A DNA stretch of 64,000 bases. It comes from a bacterium (GTDB lineage: Bacteria; JAMCPX01). This document shows positions 4,502-26,054 of this stretch, in pieces. The stretch is from NCBI GenBank assembly GCA_021792615.1, contig JAJYUJ010000008.1:11900-75899 (forward strand). Reading direction: 5' to 3'. Both the position numbers and the translations under genes were made by a program. Position 1 is the stretch's first letter; every line of letters starts with the position of its first letter. Under the pieces are notes generated by a model, which saw only the letters and a program-made list of their open reading frames with translations, had not been told where the DNA came from and searched no databases.

Positions 4502-4559
4502 CAACCCGAAAAAGACGATTAAAAAATAAGGAAACTCCCTTAGTGCATTTTTGGGTTAT
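4502..4559. repeat. Miniature copy of the TTAACCCGAAAAA...TTTTTCGGGTTAA terminal-inverted-repeat element family
   Basis: tcAACCCGAAAAAgacg ... gtgcATTTTTGGGTTatc: inverted termini that match the termini of the 230-bp elements at 7042, 41657, 45441 and 51204. Confidence 0.4.
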
Positions 4560-7268: not shown

Positions 7269-7506
7269 CCCGGTGTTCTCTGCAAGAAAGGAAGATATCC
7301 GCCTTTTATTCCGAATACTACCAGTCCGCTGTTGACAAGCTGTTGAAAATGCCCCTGCATGTCATTGCATTGCGAGGAGTCCCGCCGGAGGCGGGACGAC
7401 GAAGCAATCTGTAACTTATTGACATATAAAAACCGGAATTGCCCGACCCATCTTTGCCGTGTGCCCGCGTTTGCAATGACCGTAATTCGAGTTTTTCAAC
7501 AGCCTG

Positions 7507-7534
7507 TTGATTCCTGACTATTCTGTGCTATACT
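7507..7534 (+). promoter_or_regulatory. Candidate sigma70-type promoter for mnmG
   Basis: TTGATT, 16 nt spacer, TATACT, about 45 nt upstream of the mnmG ATG. Followed by the palindrome GTTTCATGTGAAAC at the RBS. Confidence 0.3.
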
Positions 7535-7580
7535 TGTTTTTTATAAGCTTGAGACCGTAAAATGTTTCATGTGAAACACT

Positions 7581-9473: not shown

Positions 9474-9537
9474 CCCTTCACCTGACTCCTGCTCATACTA
9501 TAGACAAAATTTATTCTATGCTTATATACTATAGGAT

Positions 9538-11742
9538 ATGACGAAATATCAGGTAACCCAATGGTTTGAAACACATACGTTTCACAGCCAGGATTTCTCA
9601 AATCTCCAGTCTCTTTTACTGTTGAAACAAAAGAGGGGGCTGAAGATCAGCCTCTGCCTGCCGACACTGAATGAAGAGACAACCATAGGAAATATCATAA
9701 CAACATTAAAAACCGCACTCTACGATGATATCGGGCTGCTCGATGAGATCGTTGTGATCGACAGCGCTTCAAGCGACAAAACACGGGATATTGCACAAAC
9801 GCTCGGTGCAAAGGTTTACCTGCATAAGGATATCATGCCCTCGCTCGGCACCTATAAAGGCAAAGGCGAGGCACTGTTCAAAAGCCTGTACGTGCTCGAG
9901 GGCGATATCATCGTCTGGATAGATGCCGATATACGAAACATGGATCCGAGATTTGTCTATGGCCTTATAGGGCCGCTCCTGAGAAACGAGCACATCCTGT
10001 TTACCAAAGGGTTTTATGTCCGGCCCATTCTGTCCGGAAACGACCTGAAACCTGTTGGCGGCGGCAGGGTTACAGAGCTGCTTGCCCGGCCGCTTTTCAA
10101 TGCTTTTTACCCGGAGCTCGCCGGATTTATACAACCCCTCGCAGGCGAGTACGCCGGATTCAAGCACGTGTTCGGGCAAATCCCCTTCCCCACGGGATAT
10201 GGGGTGGAAACCGGTATGCTTATATCCTTGTTGAAACTTATCGGGATAGATGCAATGGCCCAGGTCGATCTGGAAATGCGAATACACAGAAACCAGAGAT
10301 TGACCGATCTGAGCAAAATGTCTTTCGGCATACTGCAAACCTTCATGAAAAGGCTACAGGAAGATAATAAGGTAGAACTCCATGAGAAACTGAACATGGA
10401 ATATTTTCAATCACTGTTGTCATCCGGCGTCAGTAAGATTGATAAATTGATGCTGGAAGAATACGAGCGCGCCCCCGTTGCATCACTGAAGCCTGTTGCA
10501 GAATCTCAACCTTTACCCCGCGTCAAGGTCTCGGCGGAGCAGGGCGATTTTGACATCATGATAGGTATTCCAAGTTTCAACAATGCAGATACCATTTCGC
10601 ATGTACTTGAAGCTGTGACCATCGGGGTTGAAAAATATTTTCCGTCGAGCCGCTGCATCATCATCAATTCCGACGGCGGGTCCAGTGACGGGACACCGGA
10701 TATCGTAAAAACATTCAAGCAAAGAAGTCCGAATATCGTCTACATGACCCATCCCCTGTTTACGGTCCATAAACTCTCTATCCCGTATACAGGCATTCCC
10801 GGGAAAGGCAGTGCCGTAAAACTCATACTGGAGAAAGCTGTGGAGTTCAAAGCAAAGGCATGTGTGCTTGTGGACGCTGACCTCCGCAGCATTTCCCCGG
10901 AGTGGCTGGAAAATCTGCTTGGTCCGGTTATTTATAATCAATACGATTTTGTCGCGCCCTATTATTCGCGGTATAAGTATGACGGTACGATAACGAACAT
11001 GATCGTTTATCCTCTTACAACCGCATTGTACGGTAAATCCCTCCGTCAACCGATAGGAGGGGATTTCTGCATATCTCAAAACCTATTTAAGCTGTATCTG
11101 GAGCAGCCTGTCTGGGCCACGGATATAGCACGGTTCGGCATTGATATATGGCTGTCGACGCTCGCCATTGCCGGAGGGCATCAGGTGTGCCAGTCTTATC
11201 TCGGCACCAAGATACATAAAGCCAAAGATCCCGCGCTGGATCTTGTAAATATGTTCATGCAGGTCGTCGGAACGACCTTCATGCTTATGGAGACATACGA
11301 CAAGGCTTGGGCTGGATTACATGATGTCGATCCAATACCTTTATACGGTTTTGTCTATGAGGCAGTACCCGAGCCGATCAGTGTTGATGTCGAAAGGATG
11401 CAGCGGCACTTCGACGAAGAATTGCCGGAGATTGACAATATACTGCGCATGATATTATCAAATGATGTATACGGGAACGTGATGGCGTTGATACATAAGA
11501 AAGAGTTCCCCGACGATCTCTGGGCAGCGGTCATCTACGAATTCGCCTACGCTTTTCATAAAAAAAAGATAGACAGGACATCATTGTTGAAAACCATGGT
11601 GCCGCTTTACCTCGGGAAGGTCGCATCTTTTGTATACAAGACCCTTTATTCGTCTGCAACGCAGGCCGAAGAATCCGTGGGGGACATCGTAAAGAGCTTT
11701 GTAAAACAAAAAAAGTATCTGGAGGATCTATGGAAAGGGTGA
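9538..11742 (+). CDS. Fusion of two GT2-family glycosyltransferase domains. The N-terminal half is glucosyl-3-phosphoglycerate synthase (GpgS)-like; the C-terminal half is a second GT-A domain with a roughly 150-aa extension.
   Basis: The N half (ISLCLPTLNEETTIG...VVIDSASSDKT...GKGEAL...DADIRNMDP...GGGRVTEL...PFPTGYGVE) aligns motif-for-motif with mycobacterial GpgS. The second half (GIPSFNNADTI...INSDGGSSDGT...VDADL) is another GT-A fold. Confidence 0.7.
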   Translation: MTKYQVTQWFETHTFHSQDFSNLQSLLLLKQKRGLKISLCLPTLNEETTIGNIITTLKTALYDDIGLLDEIVVIDSASSDKTRDIAQTLGAKVYLHKDIMPSLGTYKGKGEALFKSLYVLEGDIIVWIDADIRNMDPRFVYGLIGPLLRNEHILFTKGFYVRPILSGNDLKPVGGGRVTELLARPLFNAFYPELAGFIQPLAGEYAGFKHVFGQIPFPTGYGVETGMLISLLKLIGIDAMAQVDLEMRIHRNQRLTDLSKMSFGILQTFMKRLQEDNKVELHEKLNMEYFQSLLSSGVSKIDKLMLEEYERAPVASLKPVAESQPLPRVKVSAEQGDFDIMIGIPSFNNADTISHVLEAVTIGVEKYFPSSRCIIINSDGGSSDGTPDIVKTFKQRSPNIVYMTHPLFTVHKLSIPYTGIPGKGSAVKLILEKAVEFKAKACVLVDADLRSISPEWLENLLGPVIYNQYDFVAPYYSRYKYDGTITNMIVYPLTTALYGKSLRQPIGGDFCISQNLFKLYLEQPVWATDIARFGIDIWLSTLAIAGGHQVCQSYLGTKIHKAKDPALDLVNMFMQVVGTTFMLMETYDKAWAGLHDVDPIPLYGFVYEAVPEPISVDVERMQRHFDEELPEIDNILRMILSNDVYGNVMALIHKKEFPDDLWAAVIYEFAYAFHKKKIDRTSLLKTMVPLYLGKVASFVYKTLYSSATQAEESVGDIVKSFVKQKKYLEDLWKG

Positions 11743-12681: not shown

Positions 12682-12758
12682 TCGGGGCGAGCCGATTTGA
12701 ACGGCCGACCTCTTGCTCCCAAGGCAAGCGCTCTGGACCAGGCTGAGCTACGCCCCGC
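12682..12758 (-). tRNA. tRNA-Pro (anticodon TGG)
   Basis: The reverse complement reads GCGGGGCGTAGCTCAGCCTGGTCCAGAGCGCTTGCCTTGGGAGCAAGAGGTCGGCCGTTCAAATCGGCTCGCCCCGA. Cloverleaf with anticodon loop CTTGGGA. CCA is not encoded. Confidence 0.8.
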
Positions 12759-13040
12759 TAATAATAATACCTACCAACTTTCCTGGTTAATCTCAACCTT
12801 GCCTTGTCCGCCCGCCCGCTCACCTTCTCGCGGGCGTGAACAAACCTGAGGCTCTTTCTTCATCACCTCGTTCACCCCAAGGCAAGCGCTCTGGACCAGG
12901 CTGAGCTACGCCCCGCTAATACATTACCTATCAAATTCTCTCAGCCTTCACCATAATTGCCTTGTCCGCCCGCCTGCTCACCTTCTCGCAGGCGTGAACA
13001 ATCGTGAGGCTCTTTCTTCATCGCCTCGTTTATTGCATAT
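12716..13040. repeat. Tandem duplication, two units of about 160 bp. Each unit comprises the 5' half of tRNA-Pro plus about 120 bp of its upstream flank and carries an internal CGCCCGC...GCGGGCG hairpin.
   Basis: Unit 1 (about 12716-12875) and unit 2 (about 12876-13040) are around 85-90% identical by eye: ccaaggcaagcgctctggaccaggctgagctacgccccgctaata...ccttgccttgtccgcccgcc(c/t)gctcaccttctcgc(g/a)ggcgtgaacaa... Confidence 0.8.
12876..12917 (-). pseudogene. Truncated tRNA-Pro fragment (5' half through the anticodon loop), produced by the tandem duplication
   Basis: Over about 41 nt it is identical to 12718-12758 of the intact tRNA-Pro. It lacks the T-arm and acceptor 3' strand. Confidence 0.75.
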
Positions 13041-13196
13041 TAATAGTAACAACAATGACCGAGAAATGCAATACTGAAACCATACAATGATTATTTTCCT
13101 TTATTCAAGTACAACTCTACGTGCTATCCTGTACGGAGCTAGTTTAAGTACCGTTCTAAATAAATTATGTATTAAATTACATATAAGGAGAGTGCT

Positions 13197-13403
13197 ATGG
13201 CAAAGACAACCGTTGATATAGATGAGAATCTTTTAAAGGAAGCACGCAAAATCACCCATCTGAAAACGAAGAAGGCTATCATTGAAAGAGGCATCCGAGA
13301 ACTTCTGAGGATAAATTCTCAGGAGCTCTTGAAGCAGGAACTCGGATCTTTCGATATCGAACTTTCACTTGATGAACTAAACAAGAAAAGGAGGCAAATA
13401 TGA
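13197..13403 (+). CDS. VapB-type (DUF2191/PF09957-like) type II antitoxin-like protein, with no cognate toxin gene adjacent
   Basis: 68 aa, MAKTTVDIDENLLKEARKITHLKTKKAIIERGIRELLR, matching the TTxDIDxxLLxEA...TKKxxIExxLREL signature of VapB antitoxins. Confidence 0.55.
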   Translation: MAKTTVDIDENLLKEARKITHLKTKKAIIERGIRELLRINSQELLKQELGSFDIELSLDELNKKRRQI

Positions 13404-13632
13404 CCAGAAAAGGAACAACAGGCGTATGCCCAATCTGCGGGGGCACAAAAAAAGAGGTAAAACTACCTTTACAGCAGACATGGGTTCTGGCATCGTAGTA
13501 GTAAGGGACGTCCCTGCCACGATATGTTCCCAGTGCGGAGCAGATTGGATTAGAGACCCTGTTGCTGCAAAACTGGAGAAGATCGTTGAAGATACCCGAG
13601 AAAACATACTATTGTTGAAGCTACAACGCTGA
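13400..13632 (+). pseudogene. YgiT-type zinc-finger (MqsA N-domain-like) antitoxin-like gene, interrupted by a -1 frameshift in an A7 homopolymer
   Basis: Frame A reads MTRKGTTGVCPICGGTKKEV... then stops. Frame B continues GKTTFTADMGSGIVVVRDVPATICSQCGADWIRDPVAAKLEKIVEDTRENILL. Adding one A to acaaaaaaagagg restores a canonical 77-aa YgiT-type protein (CPxCGG...TTFTxDxGxGVVVxxxVPAxxCxQCGExW). Confidence 0.7.
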
Positions 13633-13840
13633 CCGTATAATGGCCGTTACAGAATTCGGAAAAAATCGAATGTTAAGTTCCCCGAGAATTCCCATAAGAA
13701 ATGTTATGTCAACTATTAATTTCGAATAAGTTAGAACTCTCCCAGAACCTCGTGATTGCCCCGTAATCACCCCATCACATCCGTGGCGCTGCCTTGCCCG
13801 TAGGTTATCCCTTATCAGATCCCATTATTTATTATGTTTC

Positions 13841-14473
13841 TTAATAATGATATAGAAGTGTAATATTTACTGACGTGGTACTTCCATCGCTACTAATCGG
13901 TAAGCTTACTGTTGTATTTGTTCCCCCTCCGGATACATTAATTTTATCATAAGCAAAGTAATGGTAGATTACTTCTGCGCCAAGAGACAGATAACTGGTT
14001 AAGTATCCTTCATACCCAATACCAAGATCGATTCCTATATTTGGATTTGCTGTATATGTCATTTTAGGATTTACATTAGATGTTTGCAATACGCGATTAA
14101 CATAGCCTCCACCGATTAAAAAGTATATGTTGTTTGTCTTATTCAAAGGAATTATAGGTTTTACATTCAAATACGGCAATTCCATAAAGCTCCACGAACC
14201 ATTTAAATTTTGAGGGGAGCTGAATCTGCCAATACCTTGATCATACCCTAACTCTAATGCCAGATAATCAATAAACTGATACCCACCTCTTATTGTCCAG
14301 CCAGGAGCCAGCGAATAACCATCTTCATTCGGGCCAGTTGGATTATCTATCCCAGCACCAACACCAACATATAGCCCATTATGATCGCCAGCAAATACAG
14401 AAGGTGTCATACAAAAACTTACTGTTAATAACGTAGCAACCATAATACTCGTAAACTGAACTATATTTTTCAT
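13841..14473 (-). CDS. Outer-membrane beta-barrel protein (OmpA-like transmembrane domain/porin family)
   Basis: 210 aa with a signal peptide, alternating amphipathic beta-strand pattern, Gly/Tyr-rich composition and a C-terminal aromatic residue (...LLYHY). Low GC. Confidence 0.7.
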   Translation of the reverse strand: MKNIVQFTSIMVATLLTVSFCMTPSVFAGDHNGLYVGVGAGIDNPTGPNEDGYSLAPGWTIRGGYQFIDYLALELGYDQGIGRFSSPQNLNGSWSFMELPYLNVKPIIPLNKTNNIYFLIGGGYVNRVLQTSNVNPKMTYTANPNIGIDLGIGYEGYLTSYLSLGAEVIYHYFAYDKINVSGGGTNTTVSLPISSDGSTTSVNITLLYHY

Positions 14474-14513
14474 AGAGTCTGCCTCCTTTTCTTGGTGCTC
14501 TTATTGATATTCT

Positions 14514-16091
14514 TTAATATATTGCATAAAGGTAACCATCTGTTGAGGCAATATAGATCGTTCCATCTGCTCCGATTGCAGGGGAAGACGAGTAAATTGC
14601 TCCACCTGTTTGATATGTCCACCTTGGAAAACCTGTCGATTTAAATGCAAAGAGCTTGCCATCAGTGGAGCCTACATAGATTGTTCCATCTGCACCGATT
14701 GCTGGAGAAGATTGTATGGGTACAAATGTTACATATATCCATTTTAAAGTTCCATCGGGATTGATTGCATAAAAAAGTCCGCTTGCTGTACCAAAATATA
14801 TTGTTCCATCAGGACCTATGGCAGGGGCAGTTAAAGTAGTTTCTGTAATATCGCTGTCATAATAGTTCCATTGCTCGTCTCCATTTGAATTAATTGATAA
14901 AAGAGAACTGTATTCTATTCCGCCACCATATACGCTGAAGTAAGTACAACCACTTGTTCCTATTGCTGGAGGAGATGCAAGCCCGAACAATTCACCACGT
15001 GGAGCACTGCGCCATTCAGGTGTTCCATCGGGATCAGTGGCACTTTCTATTCCAGCTAGTTGTGTACCGTAAAGTATTCCATTAGTGTCTATTGCTGGTG
15101 CAGTATATGGATATAAAGGAATATCAAAGGAATTCAAATACATTTTAAGAGTACCATTAGAATTTATTGCAAGCAGATCTCCAGATAGATCTCGAGATAT
15201 TACTACATATATAGTTCCATCGGTTCCTATAGTAGGAGAAGAAGGAATAGCGGGGTATACACCAGTCAATGAAGGATGAATCAGTGAATACAAAGCTCCA
15301 ATTTGATAAGTCCATTTCAGAGTGCCATCTTGATTCAGGGCATACAGCATTTCTCCACCGTTGTTAGTGGAATAACCACTTACATAGATGGTTCCATCTT
15401 CTCCTATTGCTGCAACTGGAAAGATAAAATTTTCGGCGGCATAACCGTTTTGAAGTCCTGTACCTCTAATGTTAGATGAAATGTTCCATCCTGTTGAATA
15501 TGTCCATTTTAACCCACCTGTTGAATTCAATGCATACAATATCCCGTTATCGGCACAGATGATGTAGATTGTTCCACTTGCATCTATGGTAGGAGAACCG
15601 CATGCAATACCAATCTGATGCTTCCATCTGAGTGTACCCGTTGTTGAGCTTGTATCAACGCCGCTCAATCCGGTTTGTTCTAAATTCTGCATGTACTTGG
15701 GCCAGGGAGCATTCGTCTGAAGTTTAATGGGTCCTGTAGAAGTTTGTGTATCCAACTTTGTGGTTTCTTTTGTAAATGGAGATGATGAACCAGCATAGGT
15801 AACTGTAACTGTTGCATTCCCTGCATCTCCATACGTATATGGCGATGAGATTGCCACGGTCATATTATGACTATCCGTAGCTATGCTAAACCCATTTGTT
15901 GCGCCCCAAGTGTAATAAAGATTTGCTCCTTGAGGTGCATCTACGTTCACTGATAAAAGGATAATCCCTCCGGGTGCTGGCACTCCAGATTCTGTTATGT
16001 ATCGGATAATCAGTGGTTGATGTTGTGTGTTTTGCTTACCACAATTTATGAGGGCAAGAATACCCACGATGCATATAAAAACTTTTGGCAT
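14514..16091 (-). CDS. Secreted PQQ-like beta-propeller repeat protein (BamB-like fold) with an N-terminal Ig-like region
   Basis: 525 aa with a signal peptide and repeated blades ending in SPAIGxDGTIYVGSxDGxLYA. Low GC. Confidence 0.75.
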   Translation of the reverse strand: MPKVFICIVGILALINCGKQNTQHQPLIIRYITESGVPAPGGIILLSVNVDAPQGANLYYTWGATNGFSIATDSHNMTVAISSPYTYGDAGNATVTVTYAGSSSPFTKETTKLDTQTSTGPIKLQTNAPWPKYMQNLEQTGLSGVDTSSTTGTLRWKHQIGIACGSPTIDASGTIYIICADNGILYALNSTGGLKWTYSTGWNISSNIRGTGLQNGYAAENFIFPVAAIGEDGTIYVSGYSTNNGGEMLYALNQDGTLKWTYQIGALYSLIHPSLTGVYPAIPSSPTIGTDGTIYVVISRDLSGDLLAINSNGTLKMYLNSFDIPLYPYTAPAIDTNGILYGTQLAGIESATDPDGTPEWRSAPRGELFGLASPPAIGTSGCTYFSVYGGGIEYSSLLSINSNGDEQWNYYDSDITETTLTAPAIGPDGTIYFGTASGLFYAINPDGTLKWIYVTFVPIQSSPAIGADGTIYVGSTDGKLFAFKSTGFPRWTYQTGGAIYSSSPAIGADGTIYIASTDGYLYAIY

Positions 16092-16113
16092 ATTTTTTTC
16101 TTCTCAAGAATGC

Positions 16114-18999
16114 TTAGTATATACCACTCGGGAAAATTAGATTTATGCATGAGTTGTTTTGGTTATTTTCTATGCTTGATAAGAATATTTCGTCAAGCTT
16201 AGAAGGAGCATACTTAAACTCTCCATAATGATAAAACGCAGGACCTCCTTTACTAGGTGAATGTGGGACAAGAATAGGCTGGGAAATGGTGCCCTTGTTG
16301 TCCGTAGGACATAATGATTGTGGAAGAGTTTGAGATGCCATATAACCATATTCTTTTAGTGGCCCTATGACTGCATTGCTTATCTTTATTGCATTGGCTT
16401 TCATATTACTTGCAATTAGTGGATTCAATATAGCTTGTGAAAAGAATCCTTCGCATGCGCTATATAAATCAGTAGGGAGAGTGGGATCTACCACTATTGC
16501 TGCGGAACCTACTGCTGCTGATATTGCGGTGCATAGACCGTCTATTTGTTCTTGAGGAATCTTAACGGCTTGAACGGCAGCGTCTACAGAATCTGTAGAA
16601 AAATCTAATATATTACTTGTTGTGATATACGGCTCTAATTTAAGCGTCAGCCATGGCACATCAATCTCGGGAGTCATATTCCAAACTGGTCCATCAGACC
16701 ATCCAGCTTTGCATTGGGGATATCCTTGGCTCCAATCAACGGAGTAACACGGATTTTTCCACCAAGTTTTAATATACATGCTGACATTTATTTGTCTTGC
16801 TATTAAAGATATAGTTATACTTCCGTTATTGTTTGTAGTAATAATGGGGGAGCTGGAATTATCTAATGTGGCGGAGTCGATGATTATATTACCCTTTATC
16901 TGTACTCCAGCCTTAAAAGTATTAGTGGGATCTGGTTTTGCATTATTAGCATTACCTATTGTTGGGATAGTAGTATAAGCTGCCTTCTCCAGTTCTGTAA
17001 ATGGAACAAACCCACCATTGTAATAAGTTTGGCAACCACTATTGATGGTCGTTCCATTGAAGGTATAAACAACCTTCGGATCCCCCTTGGGACAGAGATA
17101 ATAACCCGGAACGAATGTCGATGGCCTGCATGACGGATCCACTTTTATTGAACATTCATAATCAAGTGGATCAATTAAATCAGGTGCACAATTTGGATTT
17201 ACCCATGTAGCTGTTGTAAATTCTTGATTACAATAATAAGTCTGGTTATCTGTGGTAGTTTGACCATGGGTATAATCATAATAAAGCTGAAGTATAACAG
17301 CTATGGCGTTATTCAGATTATTATCATTGATTTTTTGTTCCGCTTGATATAGAGGATTACTTGGGGACAACTCATAGGTGCCATTATCTTCCGTTATATC
17401 CTTAACCATTGAAGGGCATATCTGTCCTCCAATACTGTAATTGCCATTATTACACAATGGTAACAGAGTACTTAGAAGAGTGTTCAATAAGGACATGGGA
17501 CCCATATTTCCTATAAGAAGTTGGCATGGTTGATCCATGATACAGTTTTTATCATTGCTGCAATCGGAATAATTTTCGCAAAGGAATGGTACTACCTTAT
17601 TTGTTGGCTGGTAGTTGACTGTAATGAAATCGGTTCCTCTGTTTGTTCCCGCTGTGTTATAACCCGTTGCCACCAGTGTTTGTATACCAGGTTTTGTAAA
17701 TGGCACTACGCCACTCGTCGAGAAATTTATACCAGATGTCCCTGTGCTTGTAGTAGCACTGGTTGCAAGTATATTATTAGAAGGAGAAGTAATTGTTACA
17801 CTTGCAATATCAGAAGTAGCATCACCATATAAGCTAAACGGTGCGGTTATCGTGGGTATGTTCACATTGTCGCTTTGAGGATTGTCTATACGAATAGGCG
17901 ATGTGTGAAATGTCGTTACCTGGTCAGCTATACTATAATTGCTGCTCTCCAATGGGTTGGCAGATAAATCCTGATTACCTGCGAGCCCAGTAGGCATATT
18001 ACATTTTACCGTGGGATAAGTAAGCTTATACACTGTATCAATATCAAACCCATTTGCAGACGCTATTGTATAGCTGAATGGTTCATATGCTGGCCATTGA
18101 TTGTCCACGGTTAAGAATGTTGAAAATGTAGTATTCCAATTACCAAGCATAACATTACTATATCCTGCGTATTGACTACCGTCGACAGGAGAAAAATTCC
18201 CGCTGCTATCTTTCTTTTCAAATGCAAATTCTACAGGAGAATATAAGGTGCGTGAGAAATTCGTTGTAAACGGATAGTGTGGTGGGACGTTCATATAATC
18301 TGCATCTGGTAATGGTGCTAGTCCCATAGAACCTCCATTACCAGCTAACCAGTTCAAGAACAAGAAGAAATCGACTATACCTCCGGCAACAAGTACTTGA
18401 GCTCCAGACACAGCTCCAAACTCATTACCGTATTCGTATGATTTTACAGTCACTGGTGCACCATACTGCTGAACCGCTTCGAAAGTGTAGATGGTATTTA
18501 CCAGGGCATTGGGATTGTTTTCCAAGGAAATACCAGATTGGGTTTGTAGACCTCCATTATAGTTTACAAAAAAGTCAGCTTGTTCATACCATGCAATCTG
18601 CTGAAGATTTATCCATAAAGTAAGTTCCGTTCCTGTCGAATCAAATGAGCTATGCGTAAAATTAAGCCCAGTGACTATCCCTGCGCTGGGAAGTATTTCG
18701 ATTCCATTCATAACGAATGTTCCGGGTGCATATGTAGCCGTATTTATGGGGGAAATAAAATCTATTATTAACGCAAGTTGATTTGTAGGCTGAATCAATC
18801 TACCGCATTGTGGATATAGATGAACATCTTTTATATAATTCGCCATAAAGGCGGTATTCGGGGGTAAAGTCGTTGGAGTACAAGAGCCACCTCCACTATT
18901 AAAACTACAACCACCTCCAAATGTATTATTACACTGGACAGACGACATAATGAGTATGAACAAAACACCTATTGATAAGAGTAGATATGATCCCTTCAT
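16114..18999 (-). CDS. Giant secreted Asn/Thr/Ser/Gly/Cys-rich protein of unknown function; putative surface or adhesin-like protein
   Basis: 961 aa with an N-terminal signal (MKGSYLLLSIGVLFILIMSSVQC). Many NxT/S sequons, paired Cys clusters (CENYSDCSNDKNC, CNQEFTTATWVNPNC) and no recognisable catalytic domain. Low GC; operonic with the neighbouring secreted proteins. Confidence 0.7.
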   Translation of the reverse strand: MKGSYLLLSIGVLFILIMSSVQCNNTFGGGCSFNSGGGSCTPTTLPPNTAFMANYIKDVHLYPQCGRLIQPTNQLALIIDFISPINTATYAPGTFVMNGIEILPSAGIVTGLNFTHSSFDSTGTELTLWINLQQIAWYEQADFFVNYNGGLQTQSGISLENNPNALVNTIYTFEAVQQYGAPVTVKSYEYGNEFGAVSGAQVLVAGGIVDFFLFLNWLAGNGGSMGLAPLPDADYMNVPPHYPFTTNFSRTLYSPVEFAFEKKDSSGNFSPVDGSQYAGYSNVMLGNWNTTFSTFLTVDNQWPAYEPFSYTIASANGFDIDTVYKLTYPTVKCNMPTGLAGNQDLSANPLESSNYSIADQVTTFHTSPIRIDNPQSDNVNIPTITAPFSLYGDATSDIASVTITSPSNNILATSATTSTGTSGINFSTSGVVPFTKPGIQTLVATGYNTAGTNRGTDFITVNYQPTNKVVPFLCENYSDCSNDKNCIMDQPCQLLIGNMGPMSLLNTLLSTLLPLCNNGNYSIGGQICPSMVKDITEDNGTYELSPSNPLYQAEQKINDNNLNNAIAVILQLYYDYTHGQTTTDNQTYYCNQEFTTATWVNPNCAPDLIDPLDYECSIKVDPSCRPSTFVPGYYLCPKGDPKVVYTFNGTTINSGCQTYYNGGFVPFTELEKAAYTTIPTIGNANNAKPDPTNTFKAGVQIKGNIIIDSATLDNSSSPIITTNNNGSITISLIARQINVSMYIKTWWKNPCYSVDWSQGYPQCKAGWSDGPVWNMTPEIDVPWLTLKLEPYITTSNILDFSTDSVDAAVQAVKIPQEQIDGLCTAISAAVGSAAIVVDPTLPTDLYSACEGFFSQAILNPLIASNMKANAIKISNAVIGPLKEYGYMASQTLPQSLCPTDNKGTISQPILVPHSPSKGGPAFYHYGEFKYAPSKLDEIFLSSIENNQNNSCINLIFPSGIY

Positions 19000-19010
19000 A
19001 AGTACCTCCC

Positions 19011-19886
19011 TTAGTATGTGTTTGGTATCAATTGCTTTATGTAGCCCATTGCGTTGTTAAGCATCTCATTCGTTATGTAAGATGGTGGATCCTGGTTGGA
19101 TAATGCAATCTTTGCCTTTGTCTGGGGCGTTGATTGCGTAAAGGATTCTATCTGAGAAAGCGATCTCGCAGATGCGAGCGCTGTCAGTGAATTATTGTTG
19201 GGATTGTTAATAATTGATTGTAGAACAGGTTCCAATGCTTTATTGTACGTGTTCCCGCTTGATTCTGCACAGGCAGCTTGGAGAAGATCGGGCTGACTTG
19301 AATCAAGACAATATTCAAATGTCTTTATAATCTTATGAAGATAATGACTGCTGCCCTCTTCATTATTATCATCTCCATCATTACATCTTTCGGAAGAATT
19401 ATCACGGTTATTTAAAACAATATAATGAGCTAATTGGCCAAGCGTAATCGCTGCCTCTATCCTCAAACTGAGTTCAAACTTGTAAGCGCTCGGGGTAGCT
19501 GAAGCGTTACACGCATTTGAGAACTTATTAAAAATGCTCGAATCATCATCTATCTTCTGCGTTACAATGGTACTTGTGCCTTTTATCGTCTCGTAAAGCT
19601 TGCCTTCATATGCAACATCCAACGCCTTCGAAACGACCTGCTGTGCATGGGTTTGTGGATGCTCTAAGATTTCTTCTGCCGCTCCATAACGCTCATGCTT
19701 TTTATCACTGTTCAATCGGTTAAGTAAATCTTGTTCTCTGTTGCTAAACCAGGAAATAAACGATTGGCACTGAGGTGAAATGGTGGTATTGTTTTGTCCT
19801 GATCGATCGTCGTCGCTGAATGCTGAATTTAATACAAATCCTAGGAACAAGGATATTACACTTAGAAACAAAAGAATTCTTTTCAT
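19011..19886 (-). CDS. Secreted/lipoprotein-like protein with HEAT/PBS-lyase-like repeats, unknown function
   Basis: 291 aa with a signal peptide. Helical repeats such as EAAITLGQLA. It is the first gene of the four-gene low-GC operon. Confidence 0.55.
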   Translation of the reverse strand: MKRILLFLSVISLFLGFVLNSAFSDDDRSGQNNTTISPQCQSFISWFSNREQDLLNRLNSDKKHERYGAAEEILEHPQTHAQQVVSKALDVAYEGKLYETIKGTSTIVTQKIDDDSSIFNKFSNACNASATPSAYKFELSLRIEAAITLGQLAHYIVLNNRDNSSERCNDGDDNNEEGSSHYLHKIIKTFEYCLDSSQPDLLQAACAESSGNTYNKALEPVLQSIINNPNNNSLTALASARSLSQIESFTQSTPQTKAKIALSNQDPPSYITNEMLNNAMGYIKQLIPNTY

Positions 19887-19904
19887 ACAAAGCCCTCCTT
19901 CTCA

Positions 19905-19938
19905 ACCGTCTATATTTGAAACCCTCTATCGGGTTTCA
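19905..19938. promoter_or_regulatory. Perfect 14-bp inverted repeat (TATATTTGAAACCC-tctatc-GGGTTTCAAATATA), 15-50 nt upstream of the island operon start codon; candidate operator or 5'UTR hairpin
   Basis: Read directly from the sequence. It sits between the putative promoter region and the RBS of the 19886 gene. Confidence 0.5.
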
Positions 19939-20322
19939 AATATACTAAAACAAATCTGCTTTTAAAGGTGAACTAAGTTGTTTCTACATTCGTGATTAAT
20001 CTTAGATAAATCAGAAATACTTATAGTTGTCAAGAGTCTAGTTTTCGATCAAAGCTGTAGTCGATAATGTAAAGTAGGTGCACGAAGATCCTCGAAGCCC
20101 AGCGGCTTCTCTACACCGTTCAAAAAACGTCCCTTTTTGGAACGCTTATTTTAAATCTCGGTTTCAGAGGGAAGCGTTTACCCTGTTTTGATACCCCTTT
20201 TTTGGACACCAAAAAGAGCTTATCAAGCATGCGGTCATCCGCGATAATAAACGAATGTATCTTGTCCAGGGGTTGTTGTAGAGAACGTACGAATAAGACA
20301 GAAGAAACCGATCGTTTATTGC

Positions 20323-20817
20323 TCAGGGCTGTTTCTTTGATTTGCCTGAAAACAGCAGGTCGATGGCGAGCAGGATTGCTCCGACGGTGATCGCACTGTC
20401 CGCTACGTTGAACGCAGGCCAGTGCGTGTTTTTTACAAACACATCTATAAAATCCACAACGTAACCGAGCCGTATCCGATCGATAACATTTCCAACCGCA
20501 CCGCCCATGATCATGGATAATGCGATCATGGACAATCCGGTCATGTCCTTCGAAAACAGATATACAAAAAACAGTACAATAAAAACGGCTACCGACAGCA
20601 CCGTAAGCATCGTTGTCCGGAATATACACTGGCCGTTGTTGAACATACCGAAAGCAACCCCCCGGTTATAGACACTGACGAGATCAAGGAAACCCGGGAC
20701 GATAACAACCTGCCGGGTAAGGTAATGGACCACAAGGTATTTTGACACCTGATCCAGCAGCACGATAACAGCGGCTATCAGAACGAGGGTCGTCAGCCTC
20801 TGCTTTAAGGGTATCAT
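20323..20817 (-). CDS. lspA: Lipoprotein signal peptidase II
   Basis: MIPLKQRLTTLVLIAAVIVLLDQVSKYLVV...NRGVAFGMF...FNVADSAI. The start overlaps the ileS stop. The tracked ORF 20323..20907 is N-terminally over-extended. Confidence 0.9.
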   Translation of the reverse strand: MIPLKQRLTTLVLIAAVIVLLDQVSKYLVVHYLTRQVVIVPGFLDLVSVYNRGVAFGMFNNGQCIFRTTMLTVLSVAVFIVLFFVYLFSKDMTGLSMIALSMIMGGAVGNVIDRIRLGYVVDFIDVFVKNTHWPAFNVADSAITVGAILLAIDLLFSGKSKKQP

Positions 20818-23612
20818 CAACGGACCGCCTCGACACATCGTGTGCACAGCGTCGGATGCTGCGCGTCCTGACCCACCGAATCCGAATAATTCCAGCACCG
20901 TTCGCATTTTTGCCCGTGCGCCTTTTGAATCTGCACGTTCAGGACATCTGTTCCCTGTTTTACTTCTACCTGGGAAACGATAAAAAGCTCGGTCAGGGTA
21001 TTTTTATATTTTTCCAGCAATGCCTTATCCTCTTTTCCGGCCTCAATGACAACCATCGTTTCCAGCGAAGAACCAATGGTCTTGTTTGCACGCTGTATCT
21101 CGATAGCCTTGTTGACCTCGTCCCGTATGAGTCTCAGCCTGCCGTAGTCCTGATATACCGTCGTGTCCGTTTCCGGGAATACCCGGTGCCGGGCACTATC
21201 CGTTAAAAATATACTTTCTGTCCCTTTGTCCGGCATATATCGCCATACTTCTTCCGCCGTAAACGACAAGACCGGCGCAAGCATGGTAACAAGTGAAACA
21301 AGAATATCATACAGCACGGTCTGTCCGGAGCGCCGTGCTGTTGAAGTAGCTTTTGAAACATACAATCTGTCCTTGAGAATATCCAGATAGAAAGAACTCA
21401 GATCGACGATACAGAAATCGAGGATTGCATGATAAACGATATGGAAATCATACTCACGATAAGCCCGGTCTATTCGTTTGACAAGCTCCGCGGTCTTATA
21501 CAGCATATAACGATCGACCGCCTGCATATCCGCATATGCCGTCCGTCCTTGCGCAGGATCGAAATCATACAGGTTCCCCAATATGAATTTTATGGTATTC
21601 CGGATCTTTCGGTACGCCTCTTTCAATCGTTCCAGGATTTCCTTTGAAACACTGACGTCGCCTCTGAAATCCTCTGCGGAAACCCACAATCTCAGTACAT
21701 CCGCGCCATACTTATCAATGACCTCCTGCGGTGCAACGACGTTGCCGAGCTGTTTGCTCATTTTTCTGCCCTTCTCGTCCACAACAAATCCATGGGTGAG
21801 TACGGCCCTGTACGGTACGCCGTGTCCCGCCGTCAGGGATGTAAGCAGTGTCGATTGGAACCATCCCCTATGTTGATCGCTGCCCTCGAGATAAAGGTCC
21901 GCAGGCCAGACAAGATTATCGGTATGTTTGAGCACCACCGCATGACTAACCCCGGAGTCGAACCACACGTCCAGAATATTTTCTTCCTTCTCAAAACTTT
22001 TTCCGCCGCACTTCGGGCATGCATAGTCCGCCGGTATGAAGTCTCCGGCATCTTTTTCGAACCACGCATCAGCTCCTTTATCTTTAAACAGTTGAGAAAC
22101 GCGCAAAGCAATATCCGGGTCCGCTACACTCTGCCCGCATCCCTTGCAGTAGAACACCGGGATCGGCACACCCCATACGCGCTGCCGGGATATACACCAA
22201 TCCGGTCTTGTTTCGAGCATGCCCTGAATCCTGTCTTTGCCCCATGAAGGTATCCACGCAACGCTATCTATTGCCTTCAACGCTTCTTTTCTCAGGTCGT
22301 GCTTTTCAACGGAGATAAACCATTGTTCCGTGGCCCTCGTTATAACGGGCTTTTTGCACCGCCAGCAGTGCGGATATGCATGAGGGTAGTCCTGCTGTTT
22401 TAACAGTGCACCATTTTCCTTGAGCTTTTCTATAATCTCTTTATTCGCATCGAATACGAACTTGCCGGCAAAAAACTCCACCTCGTTCATGAATTTGCCA
22501 TACCTGTCCACCGGTGAATAGACCTCAAGCCCGTACCGCTCTCCGGTCTTATAGTCATCTGCGCCGTGTCCCGGTGCAGTATGAACGCAACCCGTACCGA
22601 TATCCGTTGTAACGTAATCCCCGAGCGTAATAAGAGAGTCCCTGTTATAAAAGGGATGTGACGCAATAATGCCTTCAAGCGTTTCGCCCTTAAAAATCCC
22701 TTTTACCTGCCCTTCTTTCCACCCCGGCAATATTTCCTTAAGACTCGCCAACAGCGGTTGGGCAACAATATAAATATACTCTATTGGTTGTGACGGTACT
22801 CCCGGTACAAAAGAAACATCTGTTTTGACTTCGAAAGCAACGTACTCCAGTTCCGGGTGTACGGTAATGGCAAGGTTGGCTGGAAGTGTCCATGGTGTTG
22901 TCGTCCATATGACAAAATAAACATTTTTGCCCCTCAATGATGCCGGCAGCTTTCCTTTGTCGTCCTTGACCTTGAACCGGACATAGACAGAGGGAGAGAC
23001 ATGGTTTTCGTATTCGACTTCAGCCTCTGCAAGCGCGGTAGCGTCGTGAGCGCACCAGTAAACAGGCTTTTTGCCTTTATACACATAGCCGTTGCGCATG
23101 ATCTTCGACAGCTCTTCGACGATCGCCGCTTCATAGCCGTAATTCATGGTGAGGTAAGGCGCTTCCCACCTGCCGAGAACCCCGAGCCGCATAAACTCCT
23201 GCCGCTGTATATCGACAAACTGCTGTGCAAATTTTCTGCATTCCCGGCGTATCTCGAGTTTCGACATCCCCTGTTTTTTCTGTCCCAGAGACTTATCGAC
23301 ATTATGTTCAATGGGCAAACCATGACAATCCCAGCCGGGCACGTACTCCGCTTTGAAACCGTGCATTGCTTTTTCCTTGATGATAATATCTTTCAGAATC
23401 TTGTTGAGCGCATGGCCTATGTGTATGTGTCCATTCGCATACGGAGGTCCGTCATGAAGCATAAAGGTTGCACCGGAGCTGTTTTTCCTGATGATCTTTT
23501 CATAGATGGCATTCTCCTCCCAGAACTTGAGAATATCCGGCTCTTTTTTGGGAAGGTCCGCCTTCATCGGAAAATCGGTCTTCGGTAAATTCAACGTGTT
23601 CTTGTAATCCAT
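20817..23612 (-). CDS. ileS: Isoleucine--tRNA ligase
   Basis: 931 aa with HIGH (PYANGHIHIGH) and KMSKS (KMSKQLGN) motifs and a C-terminal Zn-binding CxxC...CxxC. Confidence 0.97.
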   Translation of the reverse strand: MDYKNTLNLPKTDFPMKADLPKKEPDILKFWEENAIYEKIIRKNSSGATFMLHDGPPYANGHIHIGHALNKILKDIIIKEKAMHGFKAEYVPGWDCHGLPIEHNVDKSLGQKKQGMSKLEIRRECRKFAQQFVDIQRQEFMRLGVLGRWEAPYLTMNYGYEAAIVEELSKIMRNGYVYKGKKPVYWCAHDATALAEAEVEYENHVSPSVYVRFKVKDDKGKLPASLRGKNVYFVIWTTTPWTLPANLAITVHPELEYVAFEVKTDVSFVPGVPSQPIEYIYIVAQPLLASLKEILPGWKEGQVKGIFKGETLEGIIASHPFYNRDSLITLGDYVTTDIGTGCVHTAPGHGADDYKTGERYGLEVYSPVDRYGKFMNEVEFFAGKFVFDANKEIIEKLKENGALLKQQDYPHAYPHCWRCKKPVITRATEQWFISVEKHDLRKEALKAIDSVAWIPSWGKDRIQGMLETRPDWCISRQRVWGVPIPVFYCKGCGQSVADPDIALRVSQLFKDKGADAWFEKDAGDFIPADYACPKCGGKSFEKEENILDVWFDSGVSHAVVLKHTDNLVWPADLYLEGSDQHRGWFQSTLLTSLTAGHGVPYRAVLTHGFVVDEKGRKMSKQLGNVVAPQEVIDKYGADVLRLWVSAEDFRGDVSVSKEILERLKEAYRKIRNTIKFILGNLYDFDPAQGRTAYADMQAVDRYMLYKTAELVKRIDRAYREYDFHIVYHAILDFCIVDLSSFYLDILKDRLYVSKATSTARRSGQTVLYDILVSLVTMLAPVLSFTAEEVWRYMPDKGTESIFLTDSARHRVFPETDTTVYQDYGRLRLIRDEVNKAIEIQRANKTIGSSLETMVVIEAGKEDKALLEKYKNTLTELFIVSQVEVKQGTDVLNVQIQKAHGQKCERCWNYSDSVGQDAQHPTLCTRCVEAVR

Positions 23613-23710
23613 AATAACTTAACACTTTAAATGAATAACGAACACTCTGTCAAGCACCTACGTGCCGGTTCGTGATTTGCCAACGTATGTTCCCGGTGAA
23701 TGTGCCGCTA

Positions 23711-24112
23711 TCAGTGAGGAATATTTGTCTTTTTTTTGTCAAACATGGGCGATGAGATCAAAAAATCCGCCGTTGCCCTGTTGCAGGCCATGGGGATGTT
23801 GTACAGCACGGCAAGCCTCAGCAGAGCTTTCACGTCGACGTCGTGCGGCTGCGGTGTCAGAGGGTCCCATAAAAAAATGAGTATATCTATCTTTCCTTCT
23901 GCGATCATGGCGCCCGTTTGCGCATCCCCGCCGTGAGGCCCGCTCAGTAAAAGGTTCACCTCGAGCCCCGTATGTCTTTTTATTTCCTGTCCGGTAGACC
24001 GGGTCGCATAAACGGTGTATTCTCTGAGTGTTCCTTCATTGTATTTTACCCATTCCACAAGGTCCAGCTTTTTAGAATCATGCGCAACAAGCGCAATGAC
24101 CTTATTGTTCAT
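23711..24112 (-). CDS. mgsA: Methylglyoxal synthase
   Basis: [15 protein letters not shown]...ATRSTG...GPHGGDAQ...FLWDPL. The tracked ORF is over-extended by 15 codons. Confidence 0.9.
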
Positions 24113-24187
24113 AGAAAAAGTCTCCTTTTTTTGTTTTGTCCCGTCCCTGTCCCGCAACCCGGGAATAAAGTAACGGTTCCATGGGTC

Positions 24188-25576
24188 TTACTTGCCTATG
24201 CAGAATTCTGCAAAGATCTTATCGAGTATATCCTGCGATGTCACTTCTCCGGTAAGCTCTTTCAGTCCGACAAGCGCGCTGTCGACTTCTTCGGCGACAA
24301 TTTCCGGGAATGCCTGTTGATCGATAAGATTGATGGCTGCATTTAAGGAAAGCTCTATATGTTCCAGTGCCTGCTTATGCCGGTACCTGTTTATGACCGG
24401 CGCATTCTCGATCGAGGGCGATAGAGCGGGTCCTGAAACGCCCTGTACGAGTGACTCGACGCCTTCGCGCGTTTTAGCCGATACCGGGAATACGGAATAA
24501 TCCTCAAATGCATTTTTTGCCTGTTCAATCTGGTCTGCGGATGCAATATCCACTTTGTTTATCGCGATAATGACATTGTCCTTGTGCTCTTGTGCGATCG
24601 AGAGTTCTTCGTCGTAACGAGACGCTGCCGCCGGATCAATAACAATGATGACGATATCCGATTTTTCTACCCTGCTGCGGGTCATCTCCATACCAAGCTT
24701 TTCGATAGGCTCTTCGCTGTTCCGGATCCCCGCAGTGTCGGTAAATACGAGTTTTACGCCTTTGTGGTTGATTACTTCTTCTATATAGTCCCTCGTCGTT
24801 CCCGGATGGGGTGTAACTATGGCCCTGTTTTCTCCGACGATTGCGTTAAAAAGGCTTGATTTGCCCGCGTTGGGCCTTCCAATCAATACAACGTGTATGC
24901 CTTCCCGTATAATTTTTGCATGGTCGTAACTTTTCAATACGTGTACGACCTCATCATGCGCAGCCTGCAGTATGAACTTCAGATCGAACAATTGCTTTGG
25001 GGAAGCTTCCTCCTCCGGAAAATCTATCAGCACTTCTAAGTTTGTTTTTACCTGAACGAGCTTTTTCTTTATCGAAGAAATAAACTCGGACAGTACGCCC
25101 GAAATCTGTTTTATTGCCTGCACTCTCGCAGCGTCTGTATCCGCCCGAACAAGATCCAAAACCGCTTCCGCCTGTAACAGATCCATCTTGCCATTCAAAA
25201 ATGCCCGTCTGGTAAATTCTCCCCTGTCTGCAAGCCTTGCCCCGGCCTTCAATACTCTCTGCAAAACGGAGTTGATGACATTCGAACCTCCGTGCGTGTA
25301 TATCTCCACCATTTCCTCCCCGGTGTAGGTTTTGCCGGCTTTCATAAAAGCGATCAATACCTGATCGAGAGAAGAGGTGTTTGCCCCATTCATAACAGAA
25401 CCCCGGTACAATCTGTGGCTCTGATATTTTTTTATGGGTTTTGAAGGTAAAAATATCTCCCGGAATATTTGGTATGCCTTGTTGCCGCTCAGCCGGACTA
25501 TGCCTATGGCGCCTTCACCCTGGGCCGTGCTTATGGCAGCAATGGTGTCGGTTGTTACGATTGTATTTTTTTTCAT
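24188..25576 (-). CDS. mnmE: tRNA modification GTPase MnmE (TrmE)
   Basis: 462 aa with G-domain motifs (GRPNAGKSSL, DTAG) and the C-terminal CIGK motif. Confidence 0.95.
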   Translation of the reverse strand: MKKNTIVTTDTIAAISTAQGEGAIGIVRLSGNKAYQIFREIFLPSKPIKKYQSHRLYRGSVMNGANTSSLDQVLIAFMKAGKTYTGEEMVEIYTHGGSNVINSVLQRVLKAGARLADRGEFTRRAFLNGKMDLLQAEAVLDLVRADTDAARVQAIKQISGVLSEFISSIKKKLVQVKTNLEVLIDFPEEEASPKQLFDLKFILQAAHDEVVHVLKSYDHAKIIREGIHVVLIGRPNAGKSSLFNAIVGENRAIVTPHPGTTRDYIEEVINHKGVKLVFTDTAGIRNSEEPIEKLGMEMTRSRVEKSDIVIIVIDPAAASRYDEELSIAQEHKDNVIIAINKVDIASADQIEQAKNAFEDYSVFPVSAKTREGVESLVQGVSGPALSPSIENAPVINRYRHKQALEHIELSLNAAINLIDQQAFPEIVAEEVDSALVGLKELTGEVTSQDILDKIFAEFCIGK

Positions 25577-26054
25577 AGTACTGTTTTATTCAGTTTAATC
25601 TTTTACCGCTTGTCACGGCAACGATTATAAAACCTATTCCTATTCTGTGCATATTCATGTACAAGTGTCAATCTGACAGAGAGTATCCACTCTCAAAAAC
25701 CTTCCCGGTTTGCCGCTCAATGTTTGCTATCATCAAAAGCTTGACAAGCAGGAATTATAGCATAATATGAAGTTGTGAAAAAGACTAAATTACTTTTATA
25801 TTTCAATAAGTTAGTCAATAACAACACTTTGTGGTCAGTTTTTTACACTATACCATATATTGTTTATATTTAATGGTTTTTTTTCGCATGAAAAGCAGGG
25901 GAAAAGCACAGAAAATGAATGGTAACTATTTGTATTATATATACTTTACAGGTTTTCCACAGGTGTTGAAAAACTTGTGTGTTTCTCATGCTGGTTTGCT
26001 TTTGATCTCAACAAGTTACACTACAAGTTATATGATAATTATAAGGGGGCCTCT
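25577..26054. other. AT-rich mnmE-dnaA intergenic region; candidate oriC / dnaA promoter region
   Basis: About 480 bp at around 30% GC. DnaA-box-like 9-mers: TTTTCCACA near 25953 and GTATCCACT near 25683. There are few perfect boxes. Confidence 0.4.

Follow-up and report, generated by a model that had tools for sequence, protein, structure and literature searches.

The locus considered here raises the question of what a large exported protein with almost no relatives may do for its bacterium. It lies in a 64,000-nucleotide (nt) stretch of contig JAJYUJ010000008.1 (GenBank assembly GCA_021792615.1, positions 11,900 to 75,899 of the forward strand), which is called the window below and to which all coordinates refer. 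The target is the 961-amino acid (aa) product of the open reading frame (ORF) 16114..18999 on the minus strand. The first-pass annotation, made from the sequence alone, had described it as secreted, possibly glycosylated, and as a candidate surface, surface-layer (S-layer) or adhesin protein. The reading preferred here, with roughly even confidence, is that the protein is exported and, probably as a lipoprotein, tethered to the outer membrane. Its conserved immunoglobulin-like (Ig-like) stalk would carry a swappable, cysteine-stabilised, ligand-binding head, helped by an obligate 291-aa partner.

The ORF lies exactly where it was first placed, and no competing ORF at the locus exceeds 103 aa. 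The ATG is preceded, at a distance of 7 nt, by a strong Shine-Dalgarno sequence, AAGGGAGG. The mature protein has a mass of ~101.5 kDa and a pI of ~4.4. Eight contigs that were assembled independently (in two NCBI metagenome-assembled genomes (MAGs), ENA assemblies and Logan assemblies) encode the same 961-aa protein without any difference, and the window is 100% identical to contig DAIDZJ010000008.1 of GCA_027455045.1. Comparison of the conserved core with four homologues gave a proportion of nonsynonymous differences (pN) of 0.25-0.37 and a saturated synonymous proportion (pS) of ~0.72, from which the ratio of the two substitution rates (dN/dS) is roughly 0.1-0.2. The gene is real, intact and under purifying selection. 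A pseudogene, against which the first-pass annotation had cautioned, or an assembly artefact is rejected because of the identical ORF on 8 contigs and this dN/dS.

Very few relatives of the target could be found. A word-indexed search with the single sequence across 5.8 billion proteins returned five of them. An exhaustive phmmer search of 1.84 billion cluster representatives gave six matches, counting a fragment of the query itself. Every relative comes from MAGs or metagenome assemblies. The family members are designated P0001-P0005, with the fragment P0007, and the loci or contigs that carry them are given L-numbers: the P0001 allele is on L013, P0003 on L001 (GCA_023382265.1, JAMCPX01) and the P0004 cassette on L015. 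A profile of the conserved N-terminal half, run against the same 5.8 billion proteins, retrieved nothing beyond the single-sequence matches. The target has no match in Pfam even at E<=10; scans of NCBIfam, PADLOC and PHROGs were also empty, and PDB sequences were matched neither by the single sequence nor by profiles. Searches of phage and plasmid collections with tblastn found none. No relative emerged when GTDB representative genomes and JGI metagenomes were scanned with back-translated patterns, and the MAGs carrying the family apparently lie outside those collections. The enzyme homology that the first-pass annotation had left open was not found either, no enzyme family matching the target in Pfam, NCBIfam or the PDB sequence and profile searches. 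The target is an orphan, and its family is restricted to a few uncultured bacteria of acid mine drainage (AMD).

The host belongs to a comparably isolated lineage. Among GTDB species representatives, five MAGs have an isoleucyl-tRNA synthetase (IleRS) close to that encoded in the window (82-92% identity). Everything else is at <=55%, and this drop in identity places the host in a deeply isolated lineage. JAMCPX01, the genome of P0003, has given its name to a GTDB candidate phylum. A review lists this phylum as 'Ca. Megaciota' and assigns to it 17 genomes from acid mine drainage sediment (PMC11382960). The host is a diderm: lspA, lpxK and genes for a lipid A acyltransferase and for outer-membrane proteins (OMPs) are located nearby.

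The organization of the family points to two parts that evolve differently. In the N-terminal alignment of six family members (numbering in alignment A1 is shifted by -1, its first row being without Met1), the conserved ~465 N-terminal residues show 46-61% identity. Alignments of P0002-P0005 to the target cover the N-terminus only and end at aa ~465-468, homology halting abruptly past the motif VNYQ. All-against-all BLAST of the C-terminal halves, with P0004 and P0005 treated as one type, separates at least four unrelated head types of 335-490 aa. The head type of the window is shared only with P0001 and the fragment P0007; P0002, P0003 and P0004/P0005 each have a different one. Judged by these alignments, the family is modular, a conserved stalk being joined to a variable head. 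Since unrelated heads sit on the same stalk in different family members, it is the head that would set specificity. The P0004/P0005 heads match the Ig-like Pfam models TIG, Big_7 and Glucodextran_B. Searching PDB with a profile of the window-type head gave no match, and the conserved core of the stalk (aa ~232-362) likewise has no match in Pfam or PDB.

Cysteines are the most conserved feature of the head. The target has 23 Cys in total (2.4% of residues) and 7 His. All three Cys clusters quoted in the first-pass annotation are present, as the groups C474/480/486/492, C590/604 and C624/636; the first group forms the motif C-x5-C-x5-C-x5-C at aa 474-492 (nt 17524-17580). Adjacent Cys are separated by <=15 residues in 11 cases, against 6.7 +/- 1.8 in shuffled sequences (P=0.022), so that the clustering is tighter than expected but modest. 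In the window-type head, Cys are conserved at 16 of the 16 aligned positions in P0001 and at nine of nine in P0007, at an overall identity of 42-46%. Together with C40, C65 and C333, all 18 head Cys are conserved, against an overall identity of 42-61%; the other head types carry different Cys patterns. Because the head Cys are conserved wherever homologues align, they should be structural, as disulfides or as metal ligands. Their full conservation fits the extracytoplasmic, disulfide-stabilised modules proposed at first.

The composition of the target was compared with that of 10 housekeeping proteins from the same window. Enrichment was found for C (2.6x), N (2.2x), T and P (1.6x each), S (1.4x) and Y (1.3x), and depletion for R (0.15x), H (0.36x), K (0.47x) and E (0.48x). 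Thus, of the residues N, T, S, G, Y and P that had been said to dominate, all are indeed enriched except G (1.0x), and C has to be added to them. Together with the signal peptide, this acidic, charge-poor, N/T/S-rich composition supports secretion as first proposed.

Structure prediction and Foldseek, which the first-pass annotation had suggested as a check, point to Ig-like beta-sandwiches in two N-terminal segments. In the AlphaFold2 model of the N-terminal half, built from 6 sequences, two blocks (aa 73-173 and 383-468) are moderately well predicted, with a predicted local distance difference test score (pLDDT) of 60-85, and both are all-beta. In the Foldseek search of PDB this model matched SbsC first (4uic, E 1.6e-6; 4uj6, E 6.8e-6), at a template-modelling (TM) score of ~0.15. 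The next matches were Ig-like or E-set domains of sulfite dehydrogenase, SiiE, SrpA, Bap and LdtMt2, with a root-mean-square deviation of ~3-5 Å over ~100 residues; Sap was also among the PDB matches. Search of the viral structure library BFVD gave generic Ig-like matches only. The fold evidence, as far as these models go, supports a string of Ig-like beta-sandwiches and nothing finer. Internal duplication of the stalk domains was considered and rejected, as hhalign of the three N-terminal segments was negative (all P>0.2); this agrees with the absence of internal tandem repeats reported at first. The last ~150 aa of the protein are helical in the low-confidence model of the head.

Two internal segments are strongly hydrophobic. 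The Gly-rich segment at aa 195-222 reaches a Kyte-Doolittle value of 1.88 over 19 aa and is modelled as helical with low confidence. The other one, rich in Gly and Ala, is located at aa ~819-840 (16480-16545). Both have Kyte-Doolittle values of 1.8-1.9, near those of the target's signal peptide.

The first-pass annotation had reported no anchor motif. In fact the signal peptide, MKGSYLLLSIGVLFILIMSSVQC, ends in a lipobox-like Cys that is conserved in the homologues having an N-terminus. Its stretch MKGSYLLLSIGVLFILIM..., with a positively charged n-region and a hydrophobic h-region, is the top Kyte-Doolittle segment of the whole target and is conserved in the homologues. The motif [ST]S[IV]QC is kept in all homologues that have this end, namely P0002, P0004, P0005 and, once a frameshift at a G9 tract is read through, P0001. 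The canonical lipobox [LVI][ASTVI][GAS]C is not matched, the sequence being S-V-Q-C in the target and S-I-Q-C in the homologues. In the propeller lipoprotein encoded next to the target the lipobox is LINC, with an unusual residue at -1, and in the homologues of this lipoprotein it is FISC or INGC (canonical); unusual residues at -1 thus seem to be tolerated. The genome has lspA, at 20323-20907.

The P0001 allele deserves a separate description. In L013 (~330-420) the G9 homopolymer directly follows the lipobox Cys codon, and the signal peptide MKRKYLLLFGGMLLVLLVSSIQC is out of frame with the body of the protein. This frameshift stems from an error of assembly, or else it serves as an on/off switch of the slipped-strand type. 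For the window gene phase variation was ruled out, since it is without a homopolymer tract; only the L013 copy has one.

The target and its neighbours are closely packed in a minus-strand operon, with 11, 22 and 40 nt between successive genes and strong ribosome-binding sites (RBSs). It encodes, in this order, the 291-aa protein, the target, a 525-aa propeller lipoprotein and a 210-aa OMP (Table 1). The 291-aa protein has three relatives in the databases, all inside these cassettes, and a weak, sub-threshold match to HEAT_2. Its gene directly precedes the target homologue in every locus whose upstream side is visible, five in all: the window, L004, L012 (split), L013 and L001 (a remnant). The propeller homologue follows the target in the window, in L004/L015 (42% identity in L004) and in L012 (39%), though not in L001. 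The OMP gene accompanies the target in the window only, and L017 carries an OMP and propeller pair without the partner or the target. From the five-of-five linkage of the partner, as against the patchy occurrence of the propeller and OMP genes, it follows that the 291-aa protein and the target form an obligate pair, and the propeller and OMP a separable module. The propeller product matches PQQ_2 above the gathering threshold and BamB models weakly (50.6 against the 285-bit equivalog cut-off).

Upstream of the partner gene, the perfect inverted repeat listed in Table 1 overlaps a -10-like TATATT. The repeat and ~110 nt of its flank are kept in the L004/L005 cassette, where two changes in the arms are non-compensatory. 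A protein-binding site therefore fits better than an RNA hairpin, and the repeat is probably, as far as can be read from the sequence, an operator that travels with the cassette.

Table 1. Features of the target gene, its operon and the surrounding island (window coordinates)
Feature	Coordinates	Strand	Basis and remarks
Target gene	16114..18999	-	961-aa exported, Cys-rich orphan; 961 codons + stop
Signal peptide, aa 1-23, ending in conserved Cys23	18931..18999	-	Probable lipoprotein signal; atypical lipobox S-V-Q-C
Gly/Ser-rich tether and short conserved segment, aa 24-72	18784..18930	-	C40 and C65 (YPQC); alignments and Cys conservation; low pLDDT
Stalk domain 1, aa ~73-173, predicted beta-sandwich	18481..18783	-	Modelled by AlphaFold as beta-strands throughout, block pLDDT 62-85
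Hydrophobic Gly-rich segment, aa ~195-222	18334..18417	-	Present in four homologues, deleted in P0004/P0005
Most conserved core, aa ~232-362	17914..18306	-	Invariant VPPHYPFT, GY.N[IV]M.G.W, FSYT.AS and C333; pLDDT <50
Stalk domain 3, aa ~363-468, predicted beta-sandwich	17596..17913	-	Invariant RID..SDNV.IP at start, VNYQ junction at end; pLDDT ~61-73
Variable Cys-rich head, aa 469-961	16117..17595	-	18 Cys
Partner gene, 291-aa secreted, probably alpha-helical orphan	19011..19886	-	Signal of signal peptidase I (SPase I) type, ...NSAFS|DDD; stop 11 nt before target ATG
525-aa lipoprotein, PQQ/BamB-like beta-propeller	14514..16091	-	Pfam PQQ_2, Beta-prop_ACSF4; 22 nt downstream of target
210-aa small outer-membrane beta-barrel (OmpA-TM/OMP_b-brl type)	13841..14473	-	Pfam OMP_b-brl 2e-12; last operon gene
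Perfect 14-nt inverted repeat TATATTTGAAACCC-N6-GGGTTTCAAATATA	19911..19944	.	Just 5' of partner RBS; candidate operator/5' regulatory element
Low-GC accessory island	12916..20302	.	7.4 kb; GC 0.39 against 0.49 in the backbone; operon and VapB-like/Zn-ribbon pair
VapB-like antitoxin gene; 68-aa Zn-ribbon gene	13197-13403; 13426-13632	+	VapB_antitoxin match; weak YokU-like match, phrog_29304
tRNA-Pro(TGG)	12682..12757	-	ARAGORN, Rfam; flanks island

The operon is located in a low-GC accessory island. Between 14 and 20 kb of the window the GC content is 0.39-0.40, against ~0.49 in the flanks; contigs L001 and L012, with a GC content of 0.38, match the island. In the sister genome L011 (GCA_023381775.1) the flanks are 94.6-95.9% identical and 129 nt stand in place of 12916-20302. 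The right edge is fuzzy, as ~50 nt of similarity extend to window position ~13088. At the tRNA-Pro gene, the 5' 40 nt of the tRNA are duplicated at 12876-12921; a tandem repeat at 12718-13030 (158 bp, 2.0 copies, 86% matches) includes these 40 nt and the region upstream of the tRNA. The sister L011 likewise contains a copy of this fragment of the tRNA (13393-13437). This suggests repeated rearrangement at the site. Classical tRNA-targeted integration was considered and rejected: the duplicated tRNA fragment marks one edge, but the edge at lspA has no repeat to match it and an integrase gene is lacking.

The same site downstream of lspA carries different cargo in other genomes. L019 has there an unrelated 394-aa protein with multiple transmembrane segments and the VapB/Zn-ribbon pair (9971-10415). 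This pair is 98% identical between the window and L019, although the IleRS of L019 shows no more than 83% identity; a recent transfer from one lineage to another is therefore indicated. No recognisable toxin gene accompanies the pair in the window. L017 (IleRS 92%) has at 6409-8379 an OMP gene (221 aa, 51% identical) and a propeller lipoprotein gene (403 aa) in the opposite orientation, then a RelE/antitoxin pair. The target gene is absent from this site in L017-L019. Other cassettes occupy unrelated positions in the genome and are adjoined by insertion sequences (ISs): a DUF772 (IS5-like) transposase gene that of L004/L005, and IS21 istA/istB that of L015/L016. The surroundings of the P0004 cassette in L015 (148-8714 and 13774-15808) comprise, upstream, a mer operon (MerR, MerT, an HMA protein and a mercuric-reductase-like protein), an AbiEii toxin gene and Rad52/PDDEXK/RadC genes and, downstream, istA/istB.

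In L001 (9759-10060) a deletion, found in three assemblies, joins codon ~101 of the partner to codon ~60 of P0003 in a different frame, and the signal peptide is lost. Read from their sequences, the L001 and L013 copies of the cassette are decayed. The variable cargo at the site, the IS neighbours and the decayed copies characterize the module as accessory cargo that is often gained, lost and exchanged in this lineage. The first-pass annotation had noted neither this mobile setting nor the obligate partner gene nor the combination of a conserved stalk with variable heads.

On the reading preferred here, Sec would export the target, and lipidation, probably at Cys23, would tether it to the outer membrane. 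The beta-sandwich (Ig-like) stalk, aa ~73-468, would present the disulfide-rich head of ~490 aa, which would be the specificity-determining end that binds a substrate, a mineral or a cell surface. Anchoring and assembly would be supplied by the stalk and the adjacent 291-aa secreted partner. The propeller lipoprotein and the small OMP would be frequent but separable accessory partners in the envelope. A more far-reaching version, which is rather unlikely, can be put forward tentatively. In it the partner and the target would constitute an undescribed modular envelope receptor system of an AMD lineage at the candidate-phylum level (JAMCPX01/'Ca. Megaciota'-like). New folds would make up the invariant core and the Cys-rich heads. 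Recombination at VNYQ would exchange the heads and thereby change what is bound (a mineral, metal, partner cell or phage), and the 291-aa protein would be a dedicated export or assembly factor.

Several observations weigh against the tethered stalk-and-head protein. Its lipobox departs from the consensus at -1 (Q) and -3 (S), although the Cys itself is invariant; because of these non-canonical residues, SPase I might cleave it and yield a soluble periplasmic protein. The hydrophobic segments at aa 195-222 and 819-840 could alter the topology. The Ig-like assignment rests on the two modelled segments and on Foldseek matches at a TM score of ~0.15. The mean pLDDT of the N-terminal model is 48.8, and no Ig-domain Pfam model matches the target at E<=10. 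The model of the head, with a pLDDT of 36.9, is unusable. Finally, the host appears anaerobic, a rubrerythrin gene lying nearby; extensive disulfides are then less certain, and the Cys may be metal ligands.

Other explanations account for parts of the same evidence. The protein could be a periplasmic component, either soluble after SPase I cleavage or a periplasm-facing lipoprotein, that forms a scaffold with the partner, the BamB-like propeller and the small OMP. This is considered unlikely, though it draws on the atypical lipobox with Q at -1 and on the adjacent BamB/PQQ-like propeller. Lipoproteins of diderms face the periplasm by default, and BamB is a periplasm-facing lipoprotein. Furthermore, no autotransporter, type IX secretion, PEP-CTERM or LPXTG domain was found in Pfam and NCBIfam searches, and the target has no Pfam match to a C-terminal beta-barrel translocator of the autotransporter (type V) kind. 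However, the swapping of heads, presence or absence among strains, carriage next to ISs and the low-charge N/T/S composition are more typical of exposed, diversifying proteins. The S-layer part of the first-pass proposal, in which the protein would be a structural component of an S-layer or sheath and self-assemble into a surface lattice, is improbable. A large, acidic, charge-poor exported protein with SbsC as the top PDB fold match, and Sap also listed, would suit that role, and Ig-like sandwiches do occur in S-layer proteins as in adhesins. Yet the SbsC match comes from a low-confidence model at a TM score of ~0.15. S-layer proteins of bacteria typically contain few Cys or none, whereas the target has 23. 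It also matches no SLH, Big_5 or other S-layer model of Pfam or NCBIfam. Its gene, an accessory island gene, is missing in a ~95%-identical sister and decayed elsewhere, as would not be expected of a main wall layer. For these reasons the target is unlikely to be a classical S-layer protein.

The conserved ~465 aa, the abrupt VNYQ junction and the unrelated C-termini, in a mobile and strain-variable context adjoined by toxin-antitoxin type genes, are also what a polymorphic effector would show, its N-terminus delivering a variable toxic C-terminus to neighbouring cells as in CdiA, Rhs or MafB-like proteins. The chance of this is small, since Pfam, NCBIfam and PADLOC gave no toxin, Rhs/YD, filamentous haemagglutinin, PT-VENN or immunity match and no dedicated secretion system is encoded nearby. 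Moreover, the heads are large (335-490 aa) and Cys-rich, those of P0004/P0005 consist of Ig-like TIG domains, and the downstream propeller is conserved across head types without co-variation. A metal-binding envelope protein, whose Cys clusters would ligate or sequester metals rather than form disulfides, is given an even smaller chance. The conservation of all Cys, the metal-rich AMD sediment as habitat, the mer operon beside one homologous cassette and the probably anaerobic host, whose rubrerythrin gene argues against disulfides, would all be in keeping with it. In opposition, Cys make up just 2.4% of the residues with only 7 His, and CxxC, CxxCH and His-rich motifs are lacking. Heme and metalloprotease motifs were looked for as well, and the target has none. 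The Cys patterns differ among head types, and the adjacency to mer occurs in one cassette type only, within a mosaic of mobile DNA. Least probable among these explanations is an N-glycosylated surface glycoprotein, although the N/S/T-rich sequence contains 17 N-x-S/T sites. The first-pass annotation had spoken of dozens of such sequons and of possible glycosylation; the first claim fails and the second is unsupported, as shuffled sequences of the same composition contain 14.5 +/- 3.4 of them (P=0.27). The extended bacterial sequon D/E-x-N-x-S/T occurs at one site in the target, and no oligosaccharyltransferase gene was seen within the 64-kb window.

Further observations concern the rest of the window and its counterparts. 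The ileS and lspA frames overlap at 20817-20907; the longest lspA ORF begins inside ileS, and annotated relatives call a 164-aa LspA. Length variants of IleRS, 931 aa and 917 aa, fall within one 90% cluster. An element of ~227 nt resembling a miniature inverted-repeat transposable element (MITE), with the terminal inverted repeats TTAACCCGAAAAATGCA ... TGCATTTTTCGGGTTAA, is present in two full copies, 41667-41893 and 7042-7268, that are 90% identical. Partial copies were found at 45442-45486/45644-45672, 51195-51243/51429-51471 and 4525-4558; beyond the two full copies, at least two sites share the termini only. Near-identical strains differ from the window unevenly. L007 and the window show 0 differences over 11-23 kb, 188 in 8-11 kb and 95 in 23-26 kb. 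In L010, 41 of the 43 single-nucleotide polymorphisms relative to the window lie in 10.1-11.5 kb, in a glucosyl-3-phosphoglycerate-synthase-like gene of glycosyltransferase family 2 (GT2), and are mostly spaced by multiples of 3. The uneven strain differences in 8000-11500 and 23000-26000 look like recombination tracts.

The architecture proposed for the target has parallels in known systems, above all in lipoprotein adhesins that are based on Ig-like domains. LigA and LigB of Leptospira are outer-membrane lipoproteins made of serial bacterial Ig-like domains, with a common N-terminal portion of Big domains and distal portions that differ and bind (PMC3236721). As suggested for the target, a lipid anchor is followed in them by an Ig-like stalk and then by a divergent binding end. 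Unlike the Lig proteins, the target has no match to Big_2 or any other Big model of Pfam, and its stalk would consist of three non-homologous segments instead of tandem repeats. Its heads are Cys-rich and unrelated to those of Lig, the host is environmental and non-pathogenic, and the 291-aa partner has no Lig counterpart. SbsC and SbsA of Geobacillus, S-layer proteins in which Ig-like domains are strung together, are, like the target, large, acidic, exported and beta-rich, and SbsC is the top structural match of the N-terminal model. In its monoderm host SbsC binds a secondary cell-wall polymer through the N-terminal domain, and it is without Cys. In contrast, the target has a lipobox-like Cys, 23 Cys in all, a diderm host and the status of an accessory gene, and the match has a TM score of ~0.15 from a low-confidence model. 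By every sequence test applied, the target belongs to neither the Lig nor the SbsC family.

With CdiA, Rhs and MafB the target shares a conserved N-terminus that is sharply joined to unrelated C-terminal modules on mobile, strain-variable DNA. It differs from them in that its locus has no detectable toxin, immunity or delivery domains, its downstream gene is conserved and its heads are large, Cys-rich and, in P0004/P0005, Ig-containing. Likeness to BamB/PQQ and OmpA-type proteins concerns the neighbouring genes only: the 525-aa product matches PQQ_2, and BamB weakly, and the 210-aa product matches OMP_b-brl. The score of the former is far under the BamB equivalog cut-off, and both are accessory island genes, not core BAM machinery.

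The architectural logic of the target is familiar, but its sequence families have not been described before and occur only in a lineage that is poorly sampled. No detectable homology to described proteins exists for the core of the stalk, for the partner or for at least four types of head, all of them candidates for new folds. To find a hypothetical surface protein that is specific to one lineage on a genomic island is nothing unusual, and no question of long standing depends on this one. If the preferred reading is true, it would provide a first handle on how an uncultured, deep-branching AMD lineage interacts with its surroundings, through a mobile envelope module that varies among strains and exchanges its binding end between cassettes.

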